Assembly: GCA_947425205.1 (NCBI GenBank)
Contig: CANDZL010000008.1
Location: forward strand, 8,899-72,898
Direction of reading: 5' to 3'
From: an uncultured Hungatella sp.
GTDB lineage: Bacteria > Bacillota > Clostridia > Lachnospirales > Lachnospiraceae
DNA: 64,000 nucleotides
This document shows positions 54,234-61,396 of the stretch, piece by piece. The position numbers and the translations under genes are program-made. The notes beneath the pieces were generated by a model, which made no database searches, was not told where the DNA came from, and saw only the letters and a list, made by a program, of their open reading frames with translations. Within the stretch, counting starts at the first letter, position 1, and each line of letters starts with the position of its first letter.

Positions 54234-54959
54234 ATGATGGCAGAGTTAAAAGTACCAACCCCTCATATTCAGGCACTTGATGGGGAGATTGCAGAGACAG
54301 TTTTGCTTCCCGGGGATCCGCTGAGGGCAAAGTTTATTGCGGATACGTTTTTGACGGATGTAAGGCAGTTTAATGGGACAAGGAATATGCTGGGATATAC
54401 AGGGAAATATGAGGGCAAGCCGGTATCGGTTATGGGAACCGGTATGGGATGTCCGTCCATCGGGATTTATTCCCATGAACTGATTCATTTTTATGGATGT
54501 AAGAACCTGATTCGTGTGGGTACGGCTGGGGCGTTGAATCCAAAGTGCAAGGTGCGGGACATGGTGTTCGGCATGGGAGCGTGTACCACTTCCAATTATG
54601 TCCGGCTGTTTGGGCTTCCAGGGGATTATTCTTGTATTGCAAGTTTTGAACTGCTGTCCAAGGCGGTGGAAAGCGCCAAGGCTCTGGGGCTTTCCTATCA
54701 TGTGGGGAATGTCTTAAGCTCGGATATGTTCTATGGGCCCCAAAAGCAAGCAAGCGGCGGTATGACCTGGGCGGATATGGGGGTTCTGGCAGTGGAGATG
54801 GAGGCAGCGGCGCTTTATAGCAATGCGGCGGCAGCAGGGGTTCATGCGCTGTGCATTGTCACGATCTCTGACTCGGTGGTAACCGGTGAGGCGACCACAG
54901 CCCAGGAGAGACAGACTGCGTTTACCAATATGATGAAGGTGGCTTTGTCATTGGCGTAG
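54234..54959 (+). CDS. deoD: Purine nucleoside phosphorylase DeoD-type
   Basis: Motifs PGDPLRAKFIA, GMGCPSIGIY, LIRVGTAG and VEMEAAALY. Confidence 0.95.
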   Translation: MMAELKVPTPHIQALDGEIAETVLLPGDPLRAKFIADTFLTDVRQFNGTRNMLGYTGKYEGKPVSVMGTGMGCPSIGIYSHELIHFYGCKNLIRVGTAGALNPKCKVRDMVFGMGACTTSNYVRLFGLPGDYSCIASFELLSKAVESAKALGLSYHVGNVLSSDMFYGPQKQASGGMTWADMGVLAVEMEAAALYSNAAAAGVHALCIVTISDSVVTGEATTAQERQTAFTNMMKVALSLA

Positions 54960-54985
54960 GATAGGGTTGTTGTTATGATAAAGAA

Positions 54986-55034
54986 AGACTGATAGATAGT
55001 GGTTTCTATGATTTAACCACTGTTTATCAGTCTG
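54986..55034 (+). terminator. Probable deoD terminator
   Basis: Arms AGACTGATA/TATCAGTCT with inner AGTGGTT/AACCACT. Confidence 0.6.
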
Positions 55035-55166
55035 TGTCTGCCACGTAAGCTTTTTCCTTTATTGGATATGGCATTTTTTGGTTATTCTCAATCCCTGTTT
55101 TTATATGGCCTTCCATGGTTTATGTAAGATTGGAGTTCTGTTCGTTGAGGCTGTTATGACCTGTAC

Positions 55167-55401
55167 TTAGACAGCTATCCTGTTGTTCGATAAATTCTTA
55201 TAATAGTCAAAAGCTTTCATAGTATGTTTTTCATATGTTTTTTTCGTTATCTGTTCTCCGGTGTATGGATTTAGGAATTGTGTATGTGAATCTTTTTACC
55301 GAACACGCTGGAATCCATAGTACTCTAACACATTCTTTGCTTCCATAGGTTAAATCTTGTTAGGTTGTCCTTCCATTTTTTGTGTTTTTTCTATTTATCA
55401 A
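55167..55401 (-). pseudogene. hicA: Decayed HicA-family toxin gene
   Basis: Manual translation IEKTQKMEGQPNKI*PMEAKNVLEYYGFQRVR*KDSHTQFLNPYTGEQIT, with in-frame stops at 55350-52 and 55296-98. AGGAG RBS and a frameshifted TTG start. Confidence 0.65.
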
Positions 55402-55457
55402 TGGCTTACTCCTATTATTAGAGTTGATATTTATATAGTGCTATACATAGAACGAAG

Positions 55458-55488
55458 TTGCTAAGTGCCAGTGGCACTTGTTTAGCAA
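55458..55488. repeat. REP-like palindrome
   Basis: AAGTGCCA-G-TGGCACTT nested in TTGCTAA/TTAGCAA. Confidence 0.65.
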
Positions 55489-55643
55489 TGACCGGAGCGG
55501 AGATGTTCACGTAGTGGGAGCGTGCCAAAGAGAATACAGCAGGATTCCTTCATCAGGTGGCCTTTTCGCGATTTCTCAAACAGGTCAAAAGACCTTTTGA
55601 CCCCAACATCATGATATTGTTTCAGATGGCATAAAATTTAAGG

Positions 55644-55672
55644 TTGACAGACAATAGAAGTTTTTTTATAAT
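55644..55672 (+). promoter_or_regulatory. Perfect-consensus sigma-A promoter of the NADAR-NrtR-PARG operon
   Basis: TTGACA (55644-49), 17 bp, TATAAT (55667-72). Confidence 0.88.
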
Positions 55673-55683
55673 AAGTATGAATT

Positions 55684-55752
55684 GATAATATCAAAATAAT
55701 AATATCAAAATGATAATATTAAAAGAGAATATCATAAGGGTAATATCAAATA
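55684..55752 (+). repeat. Five ~14-bp tandem repeats (candidate NrtR operator array)
   Basis: Units GATAATATCAAAAT, AATAATATCAAAAT, GATAATATTAAAA, GAGAATATCATAAG and GGTAATATCAAATA. Confidence 0.75.
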
Positions 55753-55804
55753 AGAATAATTGATGGCAGATAAAAACACAGAAAAGACAAGGAGGTAAGG
55801 CAGG

Positions 55805-56365
55805 ATGGTTTACAATCTGAAGGAATTAAGGGATGCCTATAATGGTGGTGAAAGGTATAAATTTTTATTTTTCTGGGGGCATACCCCGGCTGCAGACGGG
55901 TCTATCAGCCAGGCTTGCCTCAGCCAGTGGTGGCAATGCCATTTTCAGATTGAAGGTGTAGAGTATAGCTGTGCAGAACAGTTTATGATGGCAGAGAAAG
56001 CCAGAATGTTTGGTGATGAGGAGATGCTTCTTAAGATTATGGAGGCGGTGTATCCTAAGGAAATGAAAGCCTATGGGCGTGCGGTTCAAGGATTTGATAA
56101 GGACGCTTGGGAGAAAGCCTGCTATGATATTGTGAAGAGGGGAAATCTTGCAAAATTTTCCCAAAACCAGGAACTTCTGGACTTTCTCCTGGGAACCGGA
56201 AAAAGGATTCTGGTGGAGGCCAGTCCAAGAGACCGGATATGGGGGATTGGGATGGGCAGATCCAATCCGGATGTAGAGAATCCTCTGAAGTGGAGGGGCA
56301 CAAACCTGCTGGGATTTGCTCTGACTGAGGTGAGGGACCGATTGTTGGGAGAGATAGGTGCTTGA
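55805..56365 (+). CDS. NADAR (YbiA/DUF1768) family protein
   Basis: Motifs FLFFWGH, CLSQWW, AEQFMMAEKA, VEASPRDRIWGIG and GTNLLGFAL. Confidence 0.92.
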   Translation: MVYNLKELRDAYNGGERYKFLFFWGHTPAADGSISQACLSQWWQCHFQIEGVEYSCAEQFMMAEKARMFGDEEMLLKIMEAVYPKEMKAYGRAVQGFDKDAWEKACYDIVKRGNLAKFSQNQELLDFLLGTGKRILVEASPRDRIWGIGMGRSNPDVENPLKWRGTNLLGFALTEVRDRLLGEIGA

Positions 56366-57441
56366 ATGCTGCATTTTCAGAGAGCATGAGAAGGGAGAAT
56401 AGGGTTCACATGGGGAACACAGGAATGGAGAATGGTATACGGGATAGAGAGGGCTTGACGGAAGAGGAGTTTTTAGCAGCTTACCAGCCAGGGGATTATC
56501 CCAGGCCTTCCGTGGCAACTGACATGGTGATTTTTACAGTGATGGATCGGGAGGAGGAGAATTATCGAAAGCTGCCGGAAAAGGAATTGCGGCTGCTTCT
56601 GATAAAGAGGGGCGGACATCCATTTTTGGGGTGCTGGGCATTGCCAGGAGGTTTTGTTCGGCCGACGGAGACCACGGAGCAGGCGGCGGAACGGGAACTG
56701 AGGGAAGAAACCGGTGTGAAAGATGTGTATCTGGAGCAACTCTATACTTTCAGCCAACCGGGAAGAGATCCGAGAATGTGGGTGATGAGCTGTTCGTATA
56801 TGGCGTTGGTTGACAGCAGCCAGGTGGTGGTTCAGGCAGGAGACGATGCGGATCAGGCGGCTTGGTTTAAGGTTCAGTGCCAGATGACAGGAAAGGAGAA
56901 AGGGCGGGAGACGTGGGAATTGCTTCTTTTCCATGAAGGGATCCGGCTTAAGACCGTTTTGGAAAAAAAGACCGGGGAGTCTTTTGCGGGCAGCAGGATT
57001 GTAAGATGTGAAGAAGAGAAATGTGAGGAGACTGGCGAAAAGGAAGATAAGCAAGAAGCGAGGGATCATGGAAAGGAAGGTAAGCAAGAAATGAGGGATC
57101 ATGAAAAGGAAGGTAGCAGGGGGCATGTTGATGCGATGGAAGGCGGCAAAAGGACTGGCAGCTGGGGAGGTGTTGCGTTTGATCATGGGAGAATCATTGC
57201 ATATGGGCTGGAGCGGCTGCGGGGGAAGCTGCAGTATACGGATTTGGCTCTGCATCTCATGCCGGAACATTTTACGCTGACACAGCTGCAACAAGTGTAT
57301 GAAGTAATTCTGGACAGAGAGATGCCTGCGGCGGCATTTCGCAGGAAGGCGGTGCCACTGGTGGAGGAGACTCCCAATTATACAGAAAATAAGGGGCACC
57401 GGCCATCCAGGCTGTACCGAAAAAAGAATGAAAGGGGATGA
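56362..57441 (+). CDS. nrtR: NrtR-type Nudix-wHTH regulator with a charged insert (start uncertain)
   Basis: Intact Nudix box GGFVRPTETTEQAAERELREETGV, motif GRDPR, and C-terminal wHTH FTLTQLQQVYE...GHRPSRLY. Confidence 0.85.
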   Translation: MNAAFSESMRRENRVHMGNTGMENGIRDREGLTEEEFLAAYQPGDYPRPSVATDMVIFTVMDREEENYRKLPEKELRLLLIKRGGHPFLGCWALPGGFVRPTETTEQAAERELREETGVKDVYLEQLYTFSQPGRDPRMWVMSCSYMALVDSSQVVVQAGDDADQAAWFKVQCQMTGKEKGRETWELLLFHEGIRLKTVLEKKTGESFAGSRIVRCEEEKCEETGEKEDKQEARDHGKEGKQEMRDHEKEGSRGHVDAMEGGKRTGSWGGVAFDHGRIIAYGLERLRGKLQYTDLALHLMPEHFTLTQLQQVYEVILDREMPAAAFRRKAVPLVEETPNYTENKGHRPSRLYRKKNERG

Positions 57442-58399
57442 CGGAAAAATGGACAGAAAAGCAGTTGCAAGGGAAACTTTGAATATTATGAGGCAGGGAT
57501 ATTATGAGATAGAAGACGGGAGCAGGACAAAAAGAATTGAGATAGCAGAGGATATGAAACGGTCCGTCAGACAAAGTGTTCTCATCACACCAGCTCAGGG
57601 AGAGGAGATTCTGAGAAAATATGAGGCGGAAGATTTATACAGATCTAATGGTAAGGGGCAAGTGAATCAGGAGGAATTCCTAGGCAGGAGTAAGGCAAAA
57701 GAGGAGTTCAACCAGGAAGGGGGAGATTCAGATAGCCGCCATGCAAAAGAACGGATAAGAATCGAGATTTATAATATTTCTACGGTAGATGCCATCAGAA
57801 AATTGTCTCAGGAAGGGAGAAAAAGGATAGGGGTTCTCAACTTTGCCAGTGCTAAGAATCCGGGAGGAGGATTTATAAATGGAGCTATGGCGCAGGAAGA
57901 AAGTTTGGCTGCATCCAGTACTCTCTACCGGACATTGACTGCCCATGAAGAATACTACAGGGAGAACAGGGCCAGGAGTTCGATGATGTATACGGATTAT
58001 GGGATTTATTCTCCTGATGTGGCATTTTTTAGAGACGGGAAGTTTAAGTTGGTGGAAAAGCCAGTATATGCCTCTGTTCTGACACTTCCAGCAGTGAATA
58101 TGGGGCAGGTTTTGCTTAAAGGGGAAGATGCAGAGGAAGCCAGAAGGGTGATGAGACGGAGAATGAAGCTGGCCCTGGCGATTTTTGCGGATCAGGGAGC
58201 CAAGAACCTGGTGTTGGGAGCCTATGGGTGCGGTGTGTTCCGAAACGATCCCGTTCAGGTGGCTATCTGGTGGAAGGAGATAATGGAAGAAGGGTTTGAG
58301 CAGTATTTCGAAAGTGTGGTTTATGCGGTTCTGGATACATCGCGAGGAGGAGCATGCATCAGGGCTTTTCAGGAGGTGATGAAGGAACAGGTAGGATGA
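57428..58399 (+). CDS. TIGR02452 family microbial poly(ADP-ribose) glycohydrolase-like protein
   Basis: PARG loop LNFASAKNPGGGFINGAMAQEESL and LVLGAYGCGVFRNDP. Confidence 0.9.
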   Translation: MKGDDGKMDRKAVARETLNIMRQGYYEIEDGSRTKRIEIAEDMKRSVRQSVLITPAQGEEILRKYEAEDLYRSNGKGQVNQEEFLGRSKAKEEFNQEGGDSDSRHAKERIRIEIYNISTVDAIRKLSQEGRKRIGVLNFASAKNPGGGFINGAMAQEESLAASSTLYRTLTAHEEYYRENRARSSMMYTDYGIYSPDVAFFRDGKFKLVEKPVYASVLTLPAVNMGQVLLKGEDAEEARRVMRRRMKLALAIFADQGAKNLVLGAYGCGVFRNDPVQVAIWWKEIMEEGFEQYFESVVYAVLDTSRGGACIRAFQEVMKEQVG

Positions 58400-58444
58400 A
58401 GGAATGTAGCGAAAGGGAAAAGTCTGTTCGTTGAAAGATTGGCG

Positions 58445-58473
58445 TAGACTTTCGGCTATCTGCGTGGTATAAT
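58445..58473 (+). promoter_or_regulatory. Candidate promoter embedded in an inverted repeat
   Basis: TAGACT-17bp-TATAAT with an extended TG. It overlaps the left arm of TCTGCGTGGTAT/ATACCACGCAGA. Confidence 0.55.
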
Positions 58474-58738
58474 CTCGAAAGAGAGTGATACCACGCAGAC
58501 AGTATACGTATGTGGTTCTGGTTGGGAGAATGGCCTGAGGGATATGGTGCAGCCTTAACAGAGGGCATATCAAGCTGGGAAAAGGGAATGTGGAAAACTA
58601 AAGTTTTTTGATTTTACGGCGATATATATTAACAATAGATATTTTTTAAAATATAAAGGTATATATATCTTATTATATAAAGCGAAAATAAAAGTAGCAA
58701 AAAATTTCCCATCATACAGGAAACATGAAAGGAATGTT

Positions 58739-61396
58739 ATGAGGAAAGCACAGAAAAGGCAGATTGAAGACTTTATAAAACTGCTAGACCAGGCGCACGC
58801 CGAGATAAAAAAGAATATAGAGGCCAGAGATTATCCCTCTGCATTAAGTCTTCTAGGACAGTGCCAGGAAGGAGCAGTGGGAGTAGGCAATCTGATTGAG
58901 AAAGTGGAGGGAGAAGGATTTGTCACCATTCCTTTTATAGAGTCATACTGTGAGACGGTTTACCAGATATATGAACATCTGGAGCAGAATCAGGGCTGGC
59001 AAGAAAACCAGGAATTACAGTCAGATCAAAATGAGAGGCATACTCAGCAATCGTGTTGGGACAGAACTAGGCGTTCAAGCAGGGAACTGCAACAGAGGCA
59101 AGGATTAAGCGGCAACCGGGTATATAAGAATCTGAGAAAATCCCTGATACAAGTTGAGAACAGTGTAAGACATGACATTCATGTGTGCATGGAGGTGGTA
59201 TTCCTTCCCTATAAAGCATCCATGTGGGACTCGCTGGAAAGTGTCTGGCAGGCGGCAGATGCAGATCCGGAGTGTGAAGCCTATGTGGTTCCCATTCCAT
59301 ATTATGATAGAAATCCAGACGGATCTTTAGGAACCTGTCATTATGAGGGGGATCAGCTGCCGGATTACGTGCCGGTAACCCATTATGAGACGTATCGGAT
59401 TGAAGAGAGAAATCCTGATGTCATATATATACACAATCCATATGATTATGCCAATTATGTGACAACCATAGATCCAAGATTTTATTCTGATAAATTGAAA
59501 CAACATACCGATTGTTTGGTATATATACCTTATTATTCTACATCCGGAGGTATGAGTGAGGGACAGGCATCTTGTCTAGCTTATTATAATGTGGATTATA
59601 TTGTGGTGCAATCAAAAAAATTTATGGATTTTTTTGATCCCTCTGTACCGGAGGAAAAATTCTTGTATTTCGGTTCTCCTAAATTTGACAGGGTGATCCG
59701 GATGTGCCAGAATCCGCCAGAATTGCCGGAAGAATGGAAACAAAAGATAAATGGAAGAAAAGTGTATTTCTATAATACAAGTATTGGCGGGATGCTGGGA
59801 GATACGGAAAGTTTCTTAAAAAAGATGGAATATGTGTTTGACTGTTTTGAAGGCAGGGAAGATGCATGTCTTTTGTGGAGGCCCCATCCGCTTTTGGAGT
59901 CTACCTTTGATTCTATGAGGAAGGAATATGCCCCCTGGTTTGAAAAGGTGAAAACCAGGTTTTTTGAGAAAAACATCGGAATTTATGATGATACTGCAGA
60001 CATGACGAAAACCATCGCTTTGTCAGATGTTTACATAGGTGATTCAGGGACAAGTGTCACATCCCTGTTTGGGGTTGTGGGAAAGCCCCTTTTTATATTG
60101 AATAATCAAGTACACACGCTACCGAAGGAAGATGACTGGCGTGGGGAGGCCATCAATCCGTTTTTTGATATGTGGGGTGATGATCGATATCAGATTACTA
60201 AGAACAATCAGCTATGGTTTTCTGAACATAATGATTACCGTTATAAATTCTATATGGATCTGGGAACTGGTTATTCTGGAGGACGGTATTATCTTGGAGC
60301 AGCAGAGATCAAAGGTAAACTTTATGTCTTTCCTGGCAATGCCCAGAATCTTCTGGTGATAAAGAATAAGCAGGTAAAGAAAATTGAATTTAAAACACGG
60401 ATTGTGAAGGCAGGAGCATTTTTCAACTACTGGTACAATGACAAATATATCTTCCTCTTCCCCAATCAGTATCCGTTGATGCTCCGATTCAATATTGAGA
60501 CAGAAGAACTTCAGGGAATCGATGGGATTCAGCCATTTTTAGTAAGAAACGTAGAGGGAGAATGGCGAATAGGCGGGATTGGATTATATGGGAATGAACT
60601 GGTATTTGCTTCTCCTGTGGACAATGAATTTATTTTCATGGATATCGATACGTTAAAGGCCAGAGGGCTGTGCAGCAATTCGAAATGTAATCTGGGAACC
60701 CAGACGGTCACAGTGAACGGAGAAGAACTGTGGCTGTTGCCTCTGGACGGAATGACGATCACATGTTGGAATCCCAGAACAGGGGAGACGAAGGAATATG
60801 ACGACCTGCCGAAGAATTTTAAATCCATAAGATGGCCATATGAGACAGAGTGCTGTGAGAGGCCGTTTGGAGCTATAGCATTTTCAAAAGAATGCGGAAA
60901 AGAACAGATTGTCCTTTCGCCAACCTGGGGGAATATGTACCTGACTCTTGACAGAGAGACAGGGAAGATGGAAGAGTGGAAGCCGCCAATACCATTTAAA
61001 AGCCGAGGAAAGAACGGGTATTTTGTAGCGTCGGGAATGGGAGGTTTTCGAATCACCCTGTCCCAGATAGGAAAAGCGGACTGCCAGATATGGTATACCC
61101 CGGAAAGGCGGCTTTACGATATCAATATTGATACAAAAGAATACAAGGAAATTGAGATAGACTTTGATTACGAAGAGTTAAAGGCCCATGAGCCAGGATT
61201 TATGGAGGAATCGGAATGGCTGCAGTACTGCCTGTGGGAAGATGTCTTTAATTCCCTGGAAAACTTGTTGGATGGCAAGATCACAGGAAAGCAATTTGAC
61301 AGGGAACGGCAGATCAAGGCGTTTTCCAAGATTAATGCAAGTACAGACGGCAGATGCGGAGAGAAGATACATCAGTTTGTGCGAGAGAGGGTCTAA
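58739..61396 (+). CDS. Large surface-glycan-locus protein with a CDP-glycerol phosphotransferase / GT-B-like region
   Basis: Motifs FLPYKASMWDSLESVW, PDVIYIHNPYD, GSPKFD, WRPHPL and YIGDSGTSV. The C-terminal half is beta-rich and unassigned. Confidence 0.65.
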   Translation: MRKAQKRQIEDFIKLLDQAHAEIKKNIEARDYPSALSLLGQCQEGAVGVGNLIEKVEGEGFVTIPFIESYCETVYQIYEHLEQNQGWQENQELQSDQNERHTQQSCWDRTRRSSRELQQRQGLSGNRVYKNLRKSLIQVENSVRHDIHVCMEVVFLPYKASMWDSLESVWQAADADPECEAYVVPIPYYDRNPDGSLGTCHYEGDQLPDYVPVTHYETYRIEERNPDVIYIHNPYDYANYVTTIDPRFYSDKLKQHTDCLVYIPYYSTSGGMSEGQASCLAYYNVDYIVVQSKKFMDFFDPSVPEEKFLYFGSPKFDRVIRMCQNPPELPEEWKQKINGRKVYFYNTSIGGMLGDTESFLKKMEYVFDCFEGREDACLLWRPHPLLESTFDSMRKEYAPWFEKVKTRFFEKNIGIYDDTADMTKTIALSDVYIGDSGTSVTSLFGVVGKPLFILNNQVHTLPKEDDWRGEAINPFFDMWGDDRYQITKNNQLWFSEHNDYRYKFYMDLGTGYSGGRYYLGAAEIKGKLYVFPGNAQNLLVIKNKQVKKIEFKTRIVKAGAFFNYWYNDKYIFLFPNQYPLMLRFNIETEELQGIDGIQPFLVRNVEGEWRIGGIGLYGNELVFASPVDNEFIFMDIDTLKARGLCSNSKCNLGTQTVTVNGEELWLLPLDGMTITCWNPRTGETKEYDDLPKNFKSIRWPYETECCERPFGAIAFSKECGKEQIVLSPTWGNMYLTLDRETGKMEEWKPPIPFKSRGKNGYFVASGMGGFRITLSQIGKADCQIWYTPERRLYDINIDTKEYKEIEIDFDYEELKAHEPGFMEESEWLQYCLWEDVFNSLENLLDGKITGKQFDRERQIKAFSKINASTDGRCGEKIHQFVRERV

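Follow-up and report, generated by a model that had tools for sequence, protein, structure and literature searches.

The operon NADAR–NrtR–PARG, located in a 64,000-nt stretch of DNA from an uncultured Hungatella sp., a gut bacterium of the Lachnospiraceae (hereafter the window), probably represents an autoregulated, ADP-ribose-inducible unit for the removal of ADP-ribose (ADPr) adducts; we infer ADP-ribose as its effector, as well as its substrates and physiological trigger. The features of the locus are as follows:

55644..55672, + strand: consensus sigma-70 promoter TTGACA-17-TATAAT (12/12 matches), with the start of transcription expected near 55680
55682..55765, no strand: candidate NrtR operator array of tandem 14-bp units (TRF, score 87)
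55805-58399, + strand: three-gene operon NADAR / NrtR / PARG
55805..56365, + strand: NADAR-family hydrolase, 186 aa (PF08719 E=7.7e-54, TIGR02464 E=6.3e-47)
56362..57441, + strand: NrtR-family regulator, 359 aa from an uncertain TTG start (PF00293 E=2.3e-17, PF21906 E=3.3e-17)
57449..58399 (57428-58399 as the longer ORF), + strand: bacterial-type PARG, macrodomain fold (PF10021 E=1.1e-42, TIGR02452 E=6.6e-73)

The three ORFs lie tightly packed on the same strand; the original prediction described them as overlapping, which holds only in part. The stop codon of NADAR and the uncertain TTG start of NrtR overlap by 4 nt, and ATG 57449 of PARG follows the NrtR stop by 7 nt. This start (316 aa) is more likely than ATG 57428 (323 aa), because it is preceded by a ribosome-binding site (AGGGGA) that ATG 57428 lacks; the alignment to the sister genome likewise begins at 57449. 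NADAR has its own ribosome-binding site (AAGGAGG) 9 nt upstream. According to profile matches and alignments the catalytic motifs are complete in all three proteins, with the NADAR, Nudix and PARG motif residues present as had been claimed. The neighbors are iol genes, parE/parC-like genes, deoD, an 885-aa unknown, a TagD-Gfo fusion and LicD, and neither an ADP-ribosyltransferase (ART) nor a NAD-synthesis gene was found within ~15 kb around the operon.

The first protein scores 182.8 bits with the NADAR superfamily model PF08719 (cut-off 35.1). The best match among solved structures (E=1.2e-17) is 8BAU, a Phytophthora nicotianae enzyme whose activity as a guanine-ADPr hydrolase has been proven biochemically (PMC11543638), with YbiA farther away (E=8.8e-6). 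The alignment superimposes E58, K65, E138, D143 and W146 on E43, K50, E125, D130 and W133 of 8BAU, all five being invariant across 32 cassette NADARs, and the active site belongs to the E-type class (YbiA/Phytophthora-like, residue E138). NADARs have been found to reverse G- and C-ADPr on both DNA and RNA (PMC11543638, PMC12945103).

The third protein is closest to the solved structures of the D. radiodurans PARG (5ZDA-G, 3e-43) and the T. curvata PARG (3SIG, 1.9e-42). It exceeds the cut-offs of both family models (PF10021: 146.3 bits vs 23.5, TIGR02452: 245.5 vs 50), a family formerly named DUF2263. Its catalytic motif NPGGGFINGAMAQEE (GGG-X7-QEE) and diphosphate-binding loop GAYGCGVFRND both align to 5ZDA and 3SIG. 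The 28 cassette PARGs share GGG and QEE without exception; their GAYGCGVF loop varies only at the Y/F/W position and in one paralogue (L012). On its N-terminal side the catalytic core is preceded by a low-complexity insert. A bacterial PARG reverses the 2'-OH ADP-ribosylation of RNA by RhsP2 and protects E. coli (PMC11833690). That NADAR and PARG carry the residues needed for de-ADP-ribosylation supports the predicted activity of both.

The regulator combines an N-terminal Nudix domain (PF00293, residues 77–172) with a C-terminal NrtR winged-helix DNA-binding domain (PF21906, residues 297–353), and both domains align to its best solved structures, E. faecalis EF2700 (2FML, 1.7e-33) and Shewanella NrtR (3GZ5). 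Judged by this architecture it is a member of the NrtR family and not an equivalog of the curated NF050029 set, with which it scores 153.1 bits against an NCBIfam cut-off of 400. A low-complexity charged insert of ~55–70 aa (roughly residues 213–268) is shared only with the closest homologue (alignment A1). The Nudix box GX5EX7REUXEEXGU is complete (G97, E103, R111, E112, E115, E116, G118) and unchanged in 14 homologues of the same alignment, which predicts both binding and hydrolysis of ADPr. ADPr is known to release NrtR from DNA (PMC2330246).

The candidate operator occupies the 5' leader, between the -10 element and the ribosome-binding site. TRF identified 4.9 tandem 14-bp units (consensus TGATAATATCAAAA, 55683–55750), with weaker units continuing to ~55765; the unit is a 13-bp palindrome TTGWTAWTAWCAA in about five tandem copies after the promoter, the first of which is the perfect palindrome TTGATAATATCAA. 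The pattern matches 15 times in the window (5.8 ± 2.3 expected), three times within the array in the 14-bp register, and in the 4.03-Mb genome these three sites form the sole tandem array of that register. Since no second tandem array of the operator was found in the genome, the operon is likely to be self-regulated, as originally predicted; a wider regulon in this genome was rejected, the remaining exact matches being single and intragenic. Across related loci the palindrome is repeated 2–7 times at 14-bp spacing. In 47 of 58 loci the best tandem TTGWTAWTAWCAA pair per ~13-kb locus precedes the first operon gene by 14–135 bp; the operator is also located ahead of the first gene in 35/38 cassette loci, and where pnuC is present the tandem pair sits upstream of pnuC. 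Promoters equivalent to this one are found immediately 5' of the operator both at related loci and in G024, the syntenic sister genome. The operator is palindromic, as is typical of the NrtR family, though it differs from the canonical 21-bp GT-N7-AC site (PMC2330246), for which reason we infer binding of NrtR to the 13-bp tandem palindrome from conservation only. An Rfam scan of 54800–58900 (E<=1) matched no RNA family, and a known riboswitch was rejected as an explanation of the leader repeats.

These features suggest the following mechanism. In the resting state NrtR dimers would occupy the ~five tandem 13-bp palindromes downstream of the -10 element, leaving a low basal transcription. Free ADP-ribose would arise once NAD+ is consumed, whether by NADases or by an ART (from a competitor or phage, or else endogenous and unlinked) that modifies nucleic acids or proteins; part of it would come from basal NADAR and PARG cutting the adducts. 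ADP-ribose would then bind the Nudix domain, NrtR would leave the operator and the operon would be induced. NADAR would cut N-glycosidic ADPr-base adducts (guanine, cytosine) in DNA and RNA, and PARG O-glycosidic and phosphate-linked ADPr (2'-OH of RNA, 5'/3'-phosphate ends, PAR chains), while the Nudix site of the regulator might convert ADP-ribose to AMP and ribose-5-phosphate, both detoxifying it and resetting the switch. Many Bacilli would use this regulator and operator to drive pnuC-nadR as well, coupling adduct removal to NAD+ replenishment. Against this reading, the intact Nudix domain could destroy ADP-ribose too fast for it to be a stable inducer. Or perhaps the true effector of NrtR could be another nucleotide? 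In its most far-reaching form, which we offer tentatively, the proposal depicts the cassette as a complete sense-respond-reset circuit that would give gut and soil Firmicutes a broad, inducible immunity to foreign nucleic-acid ARTs (interbacterial toxins, phages): basal NADAR (which many species have as a fusion with the repressor) and PARG would release the sensed ADPr, base-linked as well as ribose/phosphate-linked adducts would be covered, Nudix would stop the signal, and in Bacilli NAD+ would be restored.

Co-conservation, whose absence was the first of the conditions set to refute the original prediction, is evident at two levels, so that this test does not refute it. Within the genus 9 of the 37 genomes carry the trio with its gene order unchanged, a further instance lies on a cut contig (9–10/37), and every NrtR_WHD match falls inside a cassette. 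Among the 49 closest NrtR loci of species-representative genomes 22 have the trio, 11 NrtR+NADAR and 2 NrtR+PARG, and neither hydrolase is found at any of the 31 distant loci. Clostridia arrange the genes as NADAR-NrtR-PARG, Paenibacillaceae as NrtR-NADAR-PARG. NADAR-Nudix-wHTH fusions make up 15 of the best 120 homologue clusters and occur also in the genus genomes G005 and G035. The NrtR tree contains a clade of 33 rows with good support (bootstrap 97/82), each row having NADAR, PARG or pnuC-nadR, and a second clade, from Paenibacillus, which carries NADAR+PARG independently. Because the same three families adjoin in dozens of unrelated genomic contexts, their arrangement is far beyond chance. 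Could they nevertheless be three independently useful NAD-related genes that travel together without a joint function? The partial cassettes speak for this, as do NADAR+PARG without NrtR in G033 and PARG alone in several genomes of the genus, but it is hardly credible in view of the permuted-order association in two phyla-level lineages and two separate NrtR clades, the recurrent fusion proteins, the one shared operator before the first gene and the intergenic gaps of at most ~100 nt.

The partners of NrtR outside the trio bear on another alternative, namely that the operon serves housekeeping, as a regulon that recycles NAD+ and ADP-ribose and is controlled by a classical NrtR NAD-homeostasis switch. 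Nudix would then funnel the products back to metabolism, and NADAR and the PARG-like macrodomain would act mainly on soluble NAD-derived molecules (O-acetyl-ADPr, ADPr-1''-phosphate, ADP-ribosylated nucleotides, damaged pyridine nucleotides). In 13 Bacilli loci of the same NrtR clade nrtR follows pnuC-nadR (NAD salvage) behind the same operator; 11 of these also have NADAR and/or PARG, and two lack both hydrolases. The claim that no NAD-synthesis gene lies nearby is therefore true of the window and fails for these relatives. Nearby NrtR branches are associated with pncB, with pncA and a prs-like gene, or with Band_7 (nrtX-like). In the SEED naming nrtX and nrtY denote Band 7 and PpnK-like proteins, respectively. 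Identity of the nrtX/nrtY of Rodionov et al. 2008 with NADAR/PARG was rejected; in locus L060 a Band_7 protein is encoded next to nrtR. Plain NAD housekeeping fits equally well with the Bacilli linkage to pnuC-nadR and with the pncA/pncB partners, and because the Bacilli NrtR clade and operator drive pnuC-nadR, a NAD-recovery reading is as well grounded as a purely defensive one. Further in favor of recycling, NADAR matches TIGR02464, a model named for N-glycosidase activity on riboflavin intermediates, and soluble ADPr derivatives have been argued to be preferred by many NADAR/Macro proteins (PMC9503650).

The distribution of the cassette points the other way and makes recycling rather unlikely as the main function. 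The trio is patchy in the genus, PARG was not found in 24 other families of the order, and the own genome lacks pnuC and nadR and has the tandem operator only at the cassette, which does not amount to a regulon of NAD-metabolism genes. The flanks are heterogeneous, with no gene family accounting for more than 3 of the 148 neighbors, and the cassettes of the genus occupy several different contexts, only that of G024 being syntenic; in comparison with G024 the flanking proteins are 89–95% identical, whereas the cassette proteins are 63–80% identical. Four of 33 loci have a disrupted or truncated NADAR. Moreover, the closest characterized relatives of both hydrolases act on macromolecular adducts (PMC11543638, PMC11833690). 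Patchiness, varied context, divergence and NADAR disruption fit an accessory, conflict-type module. Carriage on mobile elements was rejected: tblastn of NrtR yielded 6 weak matches (<=45% identity) in plasmids, two of which were inspected and have no annotated NADAR/PARG, and no full-length match in phages, hence the cassette is essentially chromosomal.

A third alternative sees in the cassette the eraser half of an endogenous reversible ADP-ribosylation signaling, with the writer encoded elsewhere (an ART-like domain on contig C52, a sirtuin, or Tpt1/KptA in relatives). The prediction that no ART lies nearby was upheld here and in relatives, where none was found among the best 25 of 181 families formed by 148 neighbor genes of 26/37 cassette loci. 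The genome-wide search for a cognate ART gave a more qualified answer: profile searches of the own genome revealed no DarT (PF14487, which occurs in 1/37 relatives, unlinked there), no C2/C3-type ART, and one sub-threshold ART-like protein elsewhere. The latter is a 946-aa protein (G000:C52:22952-25789), whose C-terminal domain shows a marginal match to PF01129 (22.5 bits) and an R...STS...ExE-like motif; because of this weak candidate an endogenous writer is possible. Scanned directly, however, it scores 19.7 bits, below the Pfam cut-off, and proteins of this type occur in only 2/9 trio genomes. Tpt1/KptA is present in 5/9 trio-bearing genomes and absent from the own genome; in two Cohnella loci it lies directly after PARG. 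PARP searches were negative in all 9 trio-bearing genomes, with control genomes equally silent, so that this absence is weakly supported. The Streptomyces nrtR-draG pair has been tied to endogenous protein ADP-ribosylation (PMC2330246), and even with this precedent an endogenous signaling system seems improbable to us.

What orphan bacterial PARGs and stand-alone NADARs do physiologically is openly called unexplored (PMC11833690). The cassette places one PARG and one NADAR under a sensor whose predicted ligand is their common product, and its three genes form a compact unit whose promoter and candidate operator are defined. The proposal predicts that ADP-ribose induces the operon, that the cassette protects against ARTs directed at guanine, cytosine or 2'-OH, and that the Nudix site resets the signal. 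The NADAR-NrtR fusions and the Paenibacillus pnuC-nadR-nrtR-NADAR-PARG operons tie adduct removal to NAD+ recovery, and Paenibacillus is genetically more tractable than a gut anaerobe. If the defensive reading is true, many commensal Firmicutes would possess a generic inducible antidote to ADP-ribosylating toxins.

The original prediction of an undescribed system was overstated as far as the logic is concerned. Searches of the literature for NrtR+NADAR+PARG, nrtX/DUF2263/TIGR02452 and NADAR+Nudix neighborhoods found no paper on the trio, although an earlier mention is possible; the feed-forward logic, however, had been put forward in 2022, and nrtR-draG had been listed as early as 2008. Iyer, Burroughs, Anantharaman & Aravind 2022 (PMC9503650, section 3.8) predicted ARG-centered, Nudix-HTH- or WYL-regulated anti-ADP-ribosylation systems, i.e. 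ART-less ADPr-hydrolase operons induced in a feed-forward manner by released ADPr, with NADAR and Macro as occasional accessories. The cassette shares with them a one-component NrtR-type Nudix-HTH repressor, ADPr-deconjugating hydrolases without a coupled ART or sirtuin, the proposed induction and the hallmarks of conflict (patchiness, variable add-ons, fast evolution). In contrast to them, its core is NADAR plus a PARG-type macrodomain, without an ARG (DraG-type) core, rhodanese, HD/calcineurin phosphatase, chaperone or REase effector (no ARG or phosphatase domain was found in the three proteins or enriched among cassette neighbors); it recurs as NADAR-NrtR fusions, is often joined to a pnuC-nadR salvage operon, and inhabits Clostridia and Bacilli, whereas the predicted systems belong to actinobacteria, planctomycetes and proteobacteria.

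The NrtR regulons of Rodionov et al. 2008 (PMC2330246), among them Streptomyces nrtR1-draG-SCO1765 and Streptococcus nadR-pnuC-nrtR, have in common with the cassette the Nudix + wHTH regulator and autoregulation from a palindromic operator at the promoter, and they provide precedents for NrtR control of an ADPr-removing hydrolase and for the pnuC-nadR-nrtR order of the Bacilli relatives. They differ in their targets, which in that paper do not include NADAR or PARG, in the operator (a single site, as against 13-bp palindromes in tandem at 14-bp spacing) and in the Nudix box, which is lost in most NrtRs and fully intact here. The DarTG1 toxin-antitoxin system consists of DarT1 and a NADAR antitoxin (Schuller et al. 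2023, PMC11543638); the cassette NADAR has a similar conserved E/K catalytic core, predicted to be able to reverse guanine ADP-ribosylation, but E138 takes the place of the aspartate of DarG1, a transcriptional sensor replaces toxin-antitoxin stoichiometry, and membership in DarTG1 was rejected, with no DarT adjacent or elsewhere in the genome. Likewise, the trio was rejected as the catalogued PADLOC defense candidate PDC-M42, not all components being present: NADAR matches PDC-M42C (7.2e-43), NrtR and PARG no M42 component. The PARGs of T. curvata (3SIG) and D. radiodurans (5ZDA) share with ours the family and the catalytic loops (E ~1e-43), and like known bacterial PARGs it is an orphan hydrolase without a cognate PARP, for which protection against foreign RNA-targeting ARTs has been proposed (Lu et al. 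2025, PMC11833690). However, D. radiodurans DRB0099 resides in a ligase-PARG-PNKP repair operon controlled by DNA damage, whereas here the partners are NADAR and NrtR and control would be by an ADPr-type sensor. The system is real, and it is a previously predicted kind of inducible ADP-ribosylation clean-up in a new, NADAR + PARG form.

The ORF listing and the profile searches identified three same-strand genes at 55805–58399 of the window, preceded by a promoter and a tandem array.

Promoter, cassette genes and low-complexity inserts (window positions)
55644–55672: perfect TTGACA-17-TATAAT promoter
55683–55750: tandem array, period 14, 4.9 copies, consensus TGATAATATCAAAA, beginning ten bases after the -10 element
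within 55805–58399: NADAR protein (PF08719, E=7.7e-54)
within 55805–58399: regulator with Nudix and NrtR winged-helix domains (PF00293, E=2.3e-17; PF21906, E=3.3e-17)
within 55805–58399: microbial PARG (PF10021, E=1.1e-42; TIGR02452, E=6.6e-73)
56998–57165: insert in NrtR (residues ~213–268, Nudix-wHTH linker), common only to the closest homologue
57620–57740: insert in PARG (residues ~65–105)

The original prediction described these genes as overlapping, which is possible for the first pair: the NADAR stop overlaps a possible TTG start of the regulator (TTGA), and a GGAGAG ribosome-binding site precedes this TTG by 8 nt, although in-frame ATGs 24–63 nt downstream may be used instead. It does not hold for the PARG gene, whose formerly assumed start (ATG 57428) is without a ribosome-binding site, while ATG 57449, 7 nt past the regulator stop, has a good AGGGGA site and marks the point where similarity to the sister genome G024 begins. 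The start at 57449 is therefore favored, and the genes are tightly packed, not all overlapping. The inserts in NrtR and PARG are of low complexity, rich in Glu, Lys and Gly, and missing from most homologues.

The first unit of the array is a perfect palindrome, TTGATAATATCAA; the Rfam search of the leader matched no family. Every position in each related locus (about 13 kb) was scored for two TTGWTAWTAWCAA sites spaced by 13–15 bp, and in 47 of 58 loci the single best pair fell 14–135 bp upstream of the operon's first gene. It is similarly placed in 35 of the 38 loci with NADAR or PARG; the remaining three involve the end of a contig, a degenerate nadR and the insertion of a repeat. Within the source assembly (4.03 Mb) the window array is the only tandem array of the motif in the 14-bp register, and the three other exact matches are single and lie inside coding regions; the regulon in this organism is thus most probably confined to the operon of the regulator itself, in line with the predicted self-regulation.

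The spacer between deoD and the cassette (845 bp, 54960–55804) is AT-rich (about 35% GC) and ORF-poor. Its syntenic counterpart in G024 has only about 210 bp, which indicates that roughly 640 bp, including a dispersed repeat, were inserted in the lineage studied here. Pieces of this short repeat (~190 bp, 55450–55640, just upstream of the promoter), 30–130 bp long and of 78–98% identity, are scattered over more than 30 further contigs of the genome; the repeat includes a hairpin, TCAAAAGACCTTTTGA, and could represent a MITE- or REP-like element.

All three proteins exhibit the catalytic motifs that had been called intact. The Nudix box of the regulator (GX5EX7REUXEEXGU) is complete and invariant in an alignment of 14 homologues down to 65% identity; an intact signature, lost in most NrtRs, correlates with ADP-ribose (ADPr) pyrophosphatase activity (Rodionov et al., PMC2330246). 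In the alignment of PARG to the D. radiodurans and T. curvata structures (E about 1e-43), the GGG-X7-QEE loop and the diphosphate loop GAYGCGVFRND are both present, and they are conserved in 28 PARGs from cassette loci. NADAR is nearer to the NADAR:ADPr structure from P. nicotianae (8BAU, E=1.2e-17), a proven guanine-ADPr hydrolase (PMC11543638), than to E. coli YbiA (E=8.8e-6). Its residues E58, K65, E138, D143 and W146, invariant in 32 NADARs from cassette loci, correspond to E43, K50, E125, D130 and W133 of 8BAU, which are catalytic or contact ADPr (PMC11543638).

The survey of 36 genomes of the GTDB genus together with the source genome identified PARG in 18, NADAR in 15 and NrtR_WHD in 11 of the 37. 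Every NrtR_WHD match sits between NADAR and PARG, and the order NADAR-NrtR-PARG was seen in nine genomes (G000, the source genome, and its relatives G005, G008, G010, G012, G019, G020, G024 and G035); in G006 the cassette is interrupted by a contig end. A single frame of 495–508 aa holds NADAR and NrtR in G005 and G035. PARG was found in none of the 24 other families of the order. In a database of 5.8 billion proteins, NADAR-Nudix-wHTH fusions make up 15 of the best 120 homologue clusters, and the nearest regulator homologues come from Hungatella and other Lachnospiraceae MAGs, followed by Paenibacillus, Cohnella and their relatives (53–60% identity); the called genes of Paenibacillus apiarius follow the order NrtR-NADAR-PARG. 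Scanning of species-representative genomes with the regulator alignment yielded 80 loci, which were then searched by jackhmmer.

Partners of NrtR in species-representative loci
49 closest loci (at least 38% identity): trio 22, NrtR with NADAR 11, NrtR with PARG 2, neither 14
31 distant loci (Myxococcota, DPANN archaea, Bacteroidota, others): trio 0, NrtR with NADAR 0, NrtR with PARG 0, neither 31

The trio is thus co-conserved, in nine genus genomes and 22 of the 49 closest loci. The maximum-likelihood tree of the regulator groups 33 rows, all with NADAR, PARG or pnuC-nadR, in one well-supported clade (bootstrap 97/82), and a separate second Paenibacillus clade (L046, L048–L053) likewise has NADAR and PARG.

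Called genes in Hungatella show NADAR-NrtR-PARG accompanied by a second, convergent PARG. This divergent paralogue (~30% identical, GGG-X7-QEE intact; L012:7693–8577, minus strand, and G020:C22:29528–29998) suggests, from sequence, that Hungatella-like genomes could possess two PARGs of differing specificity. In two further genomes of the genus (G030:C147 and G004:C25) the PARG catalytic domain is N-terminal in multidomain open frames of 916–926 aa.

The linkage of the regulator to pnuC (NMN_transporter) and nadR (cytidylyltransferase-like plus AAA_28), downstream of which it lies in 13 Bacilli loci with a candidate operator upstream of pnuC, places the cassette within a Firmicutes lineage of NrtRs that control NAD salvage as well. 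In full these operons read pnuC-nadR-nrtR-NADAR-PARG; in others one hydrolase is missing, or both are. Branches farther off in the same regulator group adjoin pncB, pncA with a prs-like gene, a Band_7 gene of the nrtX type or Zn-dependent dehydrogenases. The cassette lineage is entwined with NAD salvage, and the main alternative reading is accordingly a housekeeping role in NAD/ADPr recycling, which we consider improbable, though worth keeping in mind. The source genome has neither pnuC nor nadR, and the neighbors within ~15 kb (iol genes, parE/parC-like topoisomerase genes, deoD, an 885-aa protein of no family, a TagD-Gfo fusion and LicD) include no ADP-ribosyltransferase (ART) or NAD-synthesis gene, as had been noted. 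Our moderately favored model is removal of ADPr adducts by an ADPr-induced cassette, for which we infer the ligand, the substrates and the trigger.

Among 148 neighboring genes, from 26 of 37 cassette loci, no family recurs more than three times, and the families listed include no ART. Only G024 carries the cassette at the same site (the parE-parC-deoD side); the other eight fetched genus loci have it in different contexts. Flanking proteins of the source genome and G024 are 89–95% identical, compared with 80% for NADAR, 63% for NrtR (partly due to the insert) and 68% for PARG; the DNA identities are 81–85% for the flanks and 75–80% for the cassette. Four of 33 loci (L022, L027, L048, L059) have a split or truncated NADAR, and plasmid and phage searches revealed no notable carriage of the cassette. 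The 885-aa ORF directly downstream of PARG (58739–61396), with no significant Pfam or PADLOC match, is missing from the syntenic G024 locus and hence lies outside the cassette. Between the two genes a perfect 11-bp inverted repeat (CTGCGTGGTAT ... ATACCACGCAG, 58458–58500) overlaps a promoter-like site; as it has no T-run, it is not a clear terminator.

The genome search for a cognate ART identified no clear writer. DarT is absent from the source genome, with one unlinked match among 37 relatives; the search for PARP gave no match in the nine trio-bearing genomes, but neither did it in its control genomes. C2/C3-type ARTs, absent from the source genome, occur in four relatives without the full trio, including G011, in which PARG and NADAR are convergent and NrtR is missing. 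A PF01129 match at the cut-off (22.5 bits; 19.7 bits, below cut-off, in the direct Pfam scan) points to a 946-aa protein (G000:C52:22952–25789) with an R...STS...ExE-like ADP-ribosyltransferase pattern at its C-terminus and an orthologue only in G024. It is preceded by ORFs of 797, 935 and 300 aa and could be a polyvalent protein or belong to a conjugative element. The source genome shows no evident cognate writer, though it may encode one of its own. The RNA 2'-phosphotransferase Tpt1/KptA, absent from the source genome, is present in five of the nine trio genomes. In two Cohnella loci its gene directly follows PARG (L020:8592–9143, L033:8303–8854), and these nrtR-NADAR-PARG-tpt1 operons place a phosphate-end ADPr writer next to its likely eraser.

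NrtR was defined by Rodionov et al. 2008, who showed its release from DNA by ADPr and whose list includes nrtR-draG of Streptomyces and nadR-pnuC-nrtR of Streptococcus (PMC2330246). NADARs reverse guanosine ADPr on RNA, and a bacterial PARG reverses the 2'-OH RNA ADPr made by RhsP2 and protects cells (Lu et al. 2025, PMC11833690, who called bacterial PARG physiology unexplored); a 2026 paper added cytidine ADPr as a NADAR substrate (PMC12945103). The literature searched, de Souza and Aravind 2012 excepted, mentions neither the cassette of NADAR, NrtR and PARG nor the associated fusions and operator. The outline of the original prediction (a co-conserved operon that regulates itself, pairs two ADPr erasers with a Nudix sensor of active appearance and lacks a linked writer) stands, while its label of candidate for an undescribed system is too strong, as the cassette is not categorically new: Iyer et al. 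2022 predicted ART-less systems centered on ADP-ribosylglycohydrolases under Nudix-HTH or WYL repressors and described feed-forward induction in the same sense, NADAR and Macro joining such systems occasionally (PMC9503650).
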